This document shows, piece after piece, positions 20,823-21,003 of a stretch of DNA of 23,963 bases. The notes under the pieces are model-generated. The model made no database searches and was not told the origin of the DNA. It worked only from the letters and a program-made list of their open reading frames with translations. Source of the DNA: Eledone cirrhosa (taxonomy: Eukaryota); NCBI GenBank assembly GCA_964016885.1, contig CAXHJY010000014.1:1-23963 (forward strand). The letters are read 5' to 3'. The translations under genes were made by a program, and so were the position numbers. Each line of letters starts with the position of its first letter. Within the stretch, counting starts at the first letter, position 1.

Positions 20823-20826
<4 letters not shown>

Positions 20827-21003
20827 TTGCCTTGTCCGATGAACGAATGGGGACGTTTTTCGTATTCGTCTTATTCGGGAAACCTCTGGTAATGAGGTAA
20901 TTATATTATATTGTTTATTATACATTCAATTTAGCTCTGGTACTTACATAGAGCACTCTTCACTCCTATGACTTTTTCAATTTGCAACGGAAACTTCAAT
21001 ACT
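20823..21003 (+). mobile_element. HHR-bearing short element between two (TA)n tracts
   Basis: HHR at the 5' end, GCTCT...AGAGCACTC tail hairpin, terminal AAACTTCAATACT running into (TA)n. Confidence 0.65.
20825..20902 (+). ncRNA. Type I hammerhead ribozyme with U4C core substitution and long stem II
   Basis: Stem I AATTGCCTTGT(20825-35)/ATGAGGTAATT(20892-902), 11 pairs including 3 G-U; core CCGATGA (20836-42); stem II CGAATGGGGACG/CGTCTTATTCG; GAAAC at 20879; stem III ACC-TCT-GGT; triplet GTA (20889-91). Confidence 0.75.

Follow-up and report, generated by a model that had tools for sequence, protein, structure and literature searches.

A type I hammerhead pattern with a variant core at the 3' end of a many-copy, likely PLE repeat of Eledone cirrhosa

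The segment 20825-20902 of the window (the whole stretch of 23,963 nucleotides analysed here, a microsatellite-rich, animal-type DNA) corresponds to a type I hammerhead pattern, with three stems around the core and stem I open. The explanation that we consider probable is that this pattern stands at the 3' end of a 5'-truncated many-copy repeat located between (TA)n runs, likely a PLE pseudo-LTR, and that a C at core position 4 (C4) and an A.G mismatch at the base of stem II are common to the copies, self-cutting after 20891 being predicted as slow. Since neither an RT nor a GIY-YIG remnant was found in the 46 reading frames scanned, a subset of those listed for the window, and no Pfam family scored above the cut-off in them, we infer the PLE membership of the repeat, which is likely, from the anatomy of its ends. 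The deviations of the hammerhead from the consensus are traits of the family that are predicted to slow cutting. The genomic copy itself is likely an inert fragment. The coordinates of the features are given in Table 1.

Table 1. Features of the hammerhead at 20825-20902 and of the repeat that carries it
Feature	Position	Strand	Remarks
(TA)n run	20779..20822	.	5' junction
Stem I	20825-20835/20892-20902	+	11 pairs, 3 of them G.U
Core CCGAUGA (C3-A9)	20836-20842	+	C at position 4 = 20837; N7 = 20840
A10.1.G11.1 mismatch	A20843 vs G20878	+	base of stem II
Stem II	20844-20855/20867-20877	+	11 pairs, 3 of them G.U; A20853 bulged
Loop II	20856-20866	+	between the stem II strands
GAAA	20879-20882	+	G12-A15.1 segment begins at 20879
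Stem III	20882-20884/20888-20890	+	3 pairs; 3-nt UCU loop, non-palindromic
GUA	20889-20891	+	predicted cut after A17 (20891), from the hammerhead consensus
AT-rich spacer	20903..20926	+	first 3' end of the family at ~20926
Predicted hairpin, CTCT-N(8-18)-GAGYAC	20934..20956	+	motif devised after seeing the sequences
Distal tail and second 3' end	20957..21003	+	followed by (TA)n 21004-21022

Anatomy and predicted folding of the motif

The 11-pair stem I, the stem II of roughly 11 pairs, the 3-bp stem III and the GUA that an earlier sequence-only reading had described are base-for-base correct in the pair table, and the CCGAUGA core and the A-G mismatch at the stem II base that it had pointed out are both present (20837; 20843/20878). 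Compared with the core letters C3 U4 G5 A6 N7 G8 A9, G12 A13 A14, A15.1-U16.1 and H17, all positions fit except U4, which is replaced by C in this copy. Instead of a paired R10.1-Y11.1, stem II has an A.G at its base. In our analysis this pair is not strictly hammerhead-defining, since U.U mismatches occur in natural motifs, and a U10.1.U11.1 mismatch at the stem II base is known from PMC3088659 (cited, like the other papers below, for the part available). A descriptor with stems of at least 8/6/3 pairs and one core mismatch allowed was matched by none of 300 dinucleotide shuffles of the window's 19,958 non-microsatellite bases, and the hammerhead pattern is therefore not due to chance. The same descriptor was matched by 2/300 shuffles at 6/4/3 pairs and by 166/300 at the loose setting of 4/2/2. 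The Rfam covariance models gave no hammerhead match on the whole window (E up to 1), nor on 20823-21005 or at a neighbouring motif located at 14427 (E up to 10).

In the minimum-energy fold, stems I and III form but stem II does not, with -22.9 kcal/mol versus -17.5 for the hammerhead as drawn. The pair probabilities of stem II are 0.00-0.03, the best fold with a free core reaches -18.3 kcal/mol, and the folding z value is -2.16 (-2.19 for the opposite strand). In the competing off fold, 20843-20849 slips onto 20863-20869 and the core 20836-20842 pairs with 20871-20878, a slipped register that is kept in 12 of the 12 near-optimal folds listed. Both odd letters belong to the core-pairing helix (C20836-G20878 and C20837-G20877). 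This copy is predicted to have a fraction of about 0.001 of its RNA in the active fold. The value rises to 0.004 if N7 is kept from pairing, which stands in for the commoner letter at that position, and to 0.29 if position 4 is kept unpaired as well, the latter being an upper figure as U could pair with G. In the same model, which ignores tertiary contacts, the canonical-core motif at 14427 reaches just 0.10. A self-dimer through stem III is predicted to be slightly more stable than two monomers (-51.7 versus 2 x -22.9), with the off fold retained. According to this model, C4 and G11.1 would help to pair the core away, so cutting is predicted to be slow.

These folds could also mean that the motif is a selected two-state switch, in which the slipped partner of loop II, C4 and G11.1 keep the ribozyme inactive until it is bound by the element's protein. 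We regard this as very improbable. The presence of both odd letters in the core-sequestering helix and the persistence of the slipped register are in agreement with a switch, as are the positions 20862-20868, which show no variant among those listed in the paralogues described below though they are mostly loop in the active fold, and the hammerhead of the green anole PLE, which cuts only with protein (PMC11167929). However, pairing in the off fold is disrupted by the common variants 20840 C, 20859 C (153/296 X14 reads), 20869 C and 20851 A; it is retained with 20872 C and 20861 T. Moreover, the CGA repeats of the 5' strand readily give rise to slipped registers, and the listed variants include no two-sided compensatory change for the active or the off fold. 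The folds themselves were computed on the copy at 20825-20902. If such a switch were true, full-length RNA would survive for reverse transcription until the element's protein flips the ribozyme on, and the coexisting C4 and U4 subfamilies would represent a natural experiment on the role of cutting in PLE mobility.

Paralogues, subfamilies and constraint

Paralogues were obtained from four of the 16 listed runs, mapped on 20821-21003 at 80% likeness. X1 belongs to the same organism and may be the source sample itself; X14, under the same species label, is a library of restriction fragments; X5 and X8 have other labels. Variants were listed from a share of 5% upward, and statements on variants refer to those listed; divergent reads were clipped, which inflates apparent conservation. 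The matches to 20821-21003 amount to 952 contigs in X1, 1770 reads in X14, 11 contigs in X5 and one contig in X8. The motif thus belongs to a many-copy family, as proposed from the sequence alone. Summed contig depth was rejected as a measure of copy number.

At core position 4 (20837), T is present in 130 of the 238 fully mapped X14 reads, with few read starts (19 for this variant), and C in 108. In X1, T accounts for 12% of the depth (19 contigs) and C for about 88%. A group of five X1 contigs whose stem II letters differ also carries C4, as do the X5 contigs, which bear another organism label; one of the latter, 58 bases long and covering 20830-20887, shows just 2 differing letters. From the X1 depth, the 5-contig group and X5 it follows that C4 copies have been amplified. 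U4 is also the letter of a 496-read X14 sister group (agreement 0.94), among the loose ends listed. Position 4 is therefore split between amplified subfamilies, C4 and U4. Decay of methylated CpGs was considered as the source of the 20837 C/T split and rejected, because only two of the six CpGs of the motif (20837 and 20861) have a C>T among the listed variants, and G>A is absent from all six; the split thus marks subfamilies. At 20843 and 20878 no variant was listed in any of the four runs, and A.G is therefore the state of the family, with the caveat that one further X14 G>T has no known position (both X1 G>T variants lie elsewhere).

Several other positions vary among the X14 reads. N7 (20840) is C in 166/241, 20850 is A in 206/259 and C in 52/259, and changes were also found at 20854 (A, 21/260), 20859 (C, as above), 20861 (T, 167/820), 20869 (C, 514/853) and 20872 (C, 485/856). 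The changes 20850 A, 20869 C and 20872 C restore Watson-Crick pairs, and 20829 A (one X5 contig) and 20833 C (the X14 sister group) each convert a G.U into a Watson-Crick pair. Stem II is broken by 20850 C or T, 20851 A (sister group) and 20854 A. The five core positions of 20836-20842 besides 20837 and 20840 are without listed variants, as are 20879-20891 and the 3' strand of stem I (20892-20902), except for 20902, which is a restriction-site read end.

The sequence-only reading had regarded the motif as a slightly decayed copy of an active family. A slight drift is indeed found, with four near-private letters in 183 bases (20850, 20908, 20927 and 20984), G20850 being the sole private change inside the motif and still pairing (G.U). 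CCGAUGA and the A-G mismatch, however, are not decay of this copy. In its stronger form this view supposes a master in which the core is canonical and the base of stem II is a Watson-Crick pair. The frequency of U4 (the 130 X14 reads, the 19 X1 contigs and the 496-read sister group) fits such a master, and so do the commonest letters at 20850, 20869 and 20872, which restore Watson-Crick pairs. We nevertheless give it little credit, in view of the invariant 20843 and 20878 among the variants listed in the four runs and of the evidence that C4 copies were themselves amplified. The consensus of the paralogues had been suggested as a check: several relatives do turn G.U into Watson-Crick pairs, but the canonical core and stem base are not simply restored.

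The variants also inform on constraint. In X14, one of 37 positions of the core, stem I and stem III is variable versus 24 of 101 in the tail (Fisher p=0.003), a count that leaves out 20902 (restriction-site end) and whose p becomes 0.24 if four further variants (two T>C, one A>C and one G>T) all hit the constrained set. N7 varies freely while the rest of the core except position 4, stem I and stem III are without listed variants. Five of the seven variable stem positions fall in the six G.U pairs, which represent 12 of the 50 stem positions (p=0.006, a post hoc test that pools variants and loose ends of related sequences), and the commonest change at variable G.U positions leads to Watson-Crick pairing.

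It is unlikely, in our opinion, that the ribozyme is vestigial, i.e. that the C4 subfamily no longer cuts usefully and has spread since cutting is dispensable for insertion. The low fraction of active fold predicted above (~0.001, or 0.004 with N7 unpaired) is what would be expected in this case. Furthermore, mutation of the hammerhead leaves the in vitro insertion of the anole PLE normal (PMC11167929), and Naiad PLEs are abundant and, in the part of PMC8557442 available, described as lacking canonical hammerheads. On the other hand, a vestigial motif is difficult to reconcile with variation at N7 and in the tail next to an absence of listed variants from stems I and III and the remaining core positions, and U4C keeps enough activity in a viroid (PMC3088659).

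Ends of the repeat and comparison with known systems

The element extends from ~20823 to 21003, between the (TA)n runs. Other, shared sequence precedes 20822 in at least 18 X1 contigs and at least one X5 contig. The family thus continues 5' in other copies, whose upstream sequence was seen over 30 bases only, and the present copy is therefore 5'-truncated just before stem I. On the 3' side, at least 10 X1 contigs pass into (TA)n behind ~20926. Among the pieces listed, two from X1 span 20830-20998 and 20866-20993; the optional 3' extension measures ~77 bases. The CTCT-N(8-18)-GAGYAC motif occurs four times in the window versus 0.46 expected, three of them just 3' of a cut site (this hammerhead and two others). 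In 535/792 X14 reads, 20933 is a T, which would allow one more pair, with 20955. This T also led us to reject 20897-20933 as a short intron. The sharp X14 read ends at 20825, 20902, 20928 and 20982 were rejected as element borders since they coincide with AATT sites, and so were two opposite-strand joints in this restriction-fragment library.

Beyond the four runs, relatives were looked for by pattern scan. There were none in viral contigs, 84 matches versus ~91 expected by chance in prokaryote genomes, and one match in metagenomes (L085), whose flanks are unlike the element. No copy of the family motifs was found in the available part of the supplement of PMC8557442.

The traits of PLEs given in PMC8557442 include inverted 5' copies, optional tails of 30-40 bases and TA targets. 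The repeat has a hammerhead near its 3' end, a 5' truncation, an optional 3' tail that is longer than the reported tails, and (TA)n on both sides, as well as on the 3' side of the X1 contigs mentioned above. The hammerheads of PLEs are widespread in metazoans, heterogeneous and slow (Cervera and de la Pena 2014, PMC4209133). Like those of metazoan PLE pseudo-LTRs, the present one is of type I, with a longer than usual stem II and a short stem III, and occurs in many dispersed single copies that form sequence families, near the end of the element. The metazoan min-HHR consensus in the same paper, as far as available, has G10.1-C11.1, a bulged base after A9 and a palindromic or absent loop III. 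The hammerhead at 20825-20902 departs from it by an A.G in place of G10.1-C11.1, by the absence of a bulge before stem II, and by a 3-pair stem III with a non-palindromic loop; it also differs from these PLE hammerheads by C4 in an amplified subfamily, an 11-pair stem I and the lack of a demonstrated linked ORF.

The green anole Poseidon PLE, PAc (Frangieh 2024, PMC11167929), allows a closer comparison. Its hammerhead cuts 26 bases into the ORF and reverse transcription starts 111-118 bases into it, and its target is AT-rich. In the present family, as in PAc, some 85-110 bases separate the hammerhead from the 3' end, and there are two 3' ends, an AT-rich target and a downstream stem-loop; unlike in PAc, the optional extension is ~77 bases versus 30-40.

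The repeat could instead be a non-autonomous hammerhead repeat, a non-LTR retrozyme or SINE-like, moved by PLE proteins, and not the end of a coding PLE; we judge this quite unlikely. The absence of an RT or GIY-YIG ORF from the 46 frames scanned would be explained in this way. Animal non-LTR retrozymes (Cervera and de la Pena 2020, PMC7229834) carry type I hammerheads in non-coding many-copy repeats, as here, and one axolotl family has a mismatch, U.U, at the stem II base. Retrozymes have also been proposed to derive from pseudo-LTRs in the available part of bioRxiv 10.64898/2026.07.22.740005. However, retrozymes form tandem units of about 300 bp, each with a hammerhead, whereas self-comparison showed that the present copy is single and not tandem in the window, and the family copies give way to (TA)n at one of two fixed places, with no next unit. 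In further contrast to the retrozymes of PMC7229834, stems I and II are here much longer than the canonical 6 and 4 pairs.

Each of the two core deviations has a precedent. U4C is a natural viroid variant with lowered activity in vitro that still allows infectivity (Perreault 2011, PMC3088659), and mismatches at the stem II base occur among natural core variants. Unlike the variants in the available part of that work, both changes occur together here, the mismatch is A.G, and the host is an animal genomic repeat. In the literature searched, we found neither this family nor a PLE hammerhead combining U4C with A.G; Lunse, Weinberg and Breaker, and Arkhipova 2017 may cover such variants.

If the repeat is the end of a PLE, the following sequence of events can be proposed. 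In the RNA of the master element, the motif would cut after GUA. Because of U4C and the competing fold (20836-20842 with 20871-20878), most of the RNA would stay uncut unless the element's protein or tertiary contacts change the folding, which has been reported for the anole PLE. Reverse transcription of the uncut RNA would start at one of two internal sites (~20926 and ~21003), the copy being inserted into a nicked TA repeat, and synthesis would end at the base of stem I.

Why PLEs carry hammerheads at all is a question, as these cut slowly in vitro, the single PLE system that has been reconstituted can insert without cutting, and some abundant clades do without it. In the present family, the amplified C4 and U4 subfamilies with a fixed A.G constitute a matched natural pair for testing the effect of the cutting rate. 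The family also exemplifies a class of motifs that is missed by Rfam models and strict descriptors. If the C4 and U4 forms behave alike, it would be one more hammerhead variant among the thousands in animal repeats.

Neighbouring hammerheads and repeats

The window contains at least four hammerhead-bearing repeat ends with a similar anatomy. The distance from the cut site to the 3' TA run is 112 bases for 20825-20902 and ~91, 98 and 82 bases for the three neighbour motifs. The first neighbour, 14427-14479, lies inside a perfect palindrome (14359-14494; 66-base arms and a 4-base loop) whose fold-back point is at the 5' strand of stem I, and its hammerhead is present on both strands of the palindrome, with U.U at the stem II base, a 4-pair stem III and GUA. 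A second perfect palindrome with 53-base arms, 21023-21132, has its centre in the loop of a long hammerhead stem II. A half hammerhead follows 3' of this centre, with GAAA, a 6-pair stem III and GUC at 21114-21116, the inversion taking the place of the 5' hammerhead core. The third neighbour, at 21311-21342 on the minus strand, is a minimal hammerhead that fits the published PLE consensus, with a bulged A, a G-C stem II base, no loop III and a 2-pair stem I, 82 bases from the TA run.

The two palindromes represent the inverted arrangement of pseudo-LTR type, which is found at these neighbours and not at the 20825-20902 copy. They correspond to 5' inversions typical of PLEs (PMC8557442) and count in favour of a PLE. 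The palindrome at 21023-21132 suggests that PLE 5' inversions may arise when priming occurs by fold-back at ribozyme hairpins.

The stem sequences had been described as different from those at 14427. Indeed, 20825-20902 and 14427-14479 show no sequence likeness beyond chance (122/300 shuffles score as well). The hammerhead motifs of the window are separate families and separate insertions, which agrees in part with the proposal of independent lineages at one locus, but neither an independent origin nor a special locus follows from it; since several such ends crowd the window, the co-location with 14427 means little. The tail of the present repeat shows no significant kinship with the tails at 14480 and 21133 (252/300 and 242/300 shuffles score as well), while those two are alike (0/300).

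Other repeats were noticed in the window. The tail sequence at 21133-21175 recurs at 5346-5395 on the minus strand (33 bases, 91% alike), where it stands alone between TA runs. An inverted repeat pair, 20362-20576/21529-21749 (91% alike), brackets 20825-20902 and points to nested insertions; further inverted repeats are 21488-21512/21775-21799 (100%) and 3695-3836/4025-4166 (99%). Putative degenerate hammerhead-like cores lie at 3840-3915 (minus strand) and at 17005, 17110, 18248 and 18348 (plus strand), and the pair near 18229 and 18327 forms a 48-base direct repeat. A SINE-like repeat is present in three copies (5070-5139, 18069-18119 and 20646-20710; 80-83% alike), and the repeat near 20610-20720 presumably resembles an octopus SINE. 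Finally, 8168-13177 is a 5-kb purine-skewed satellite with a 6-base unit, and 1972-2679 is a minisatellite of about 10 copies of a 72-base unit.
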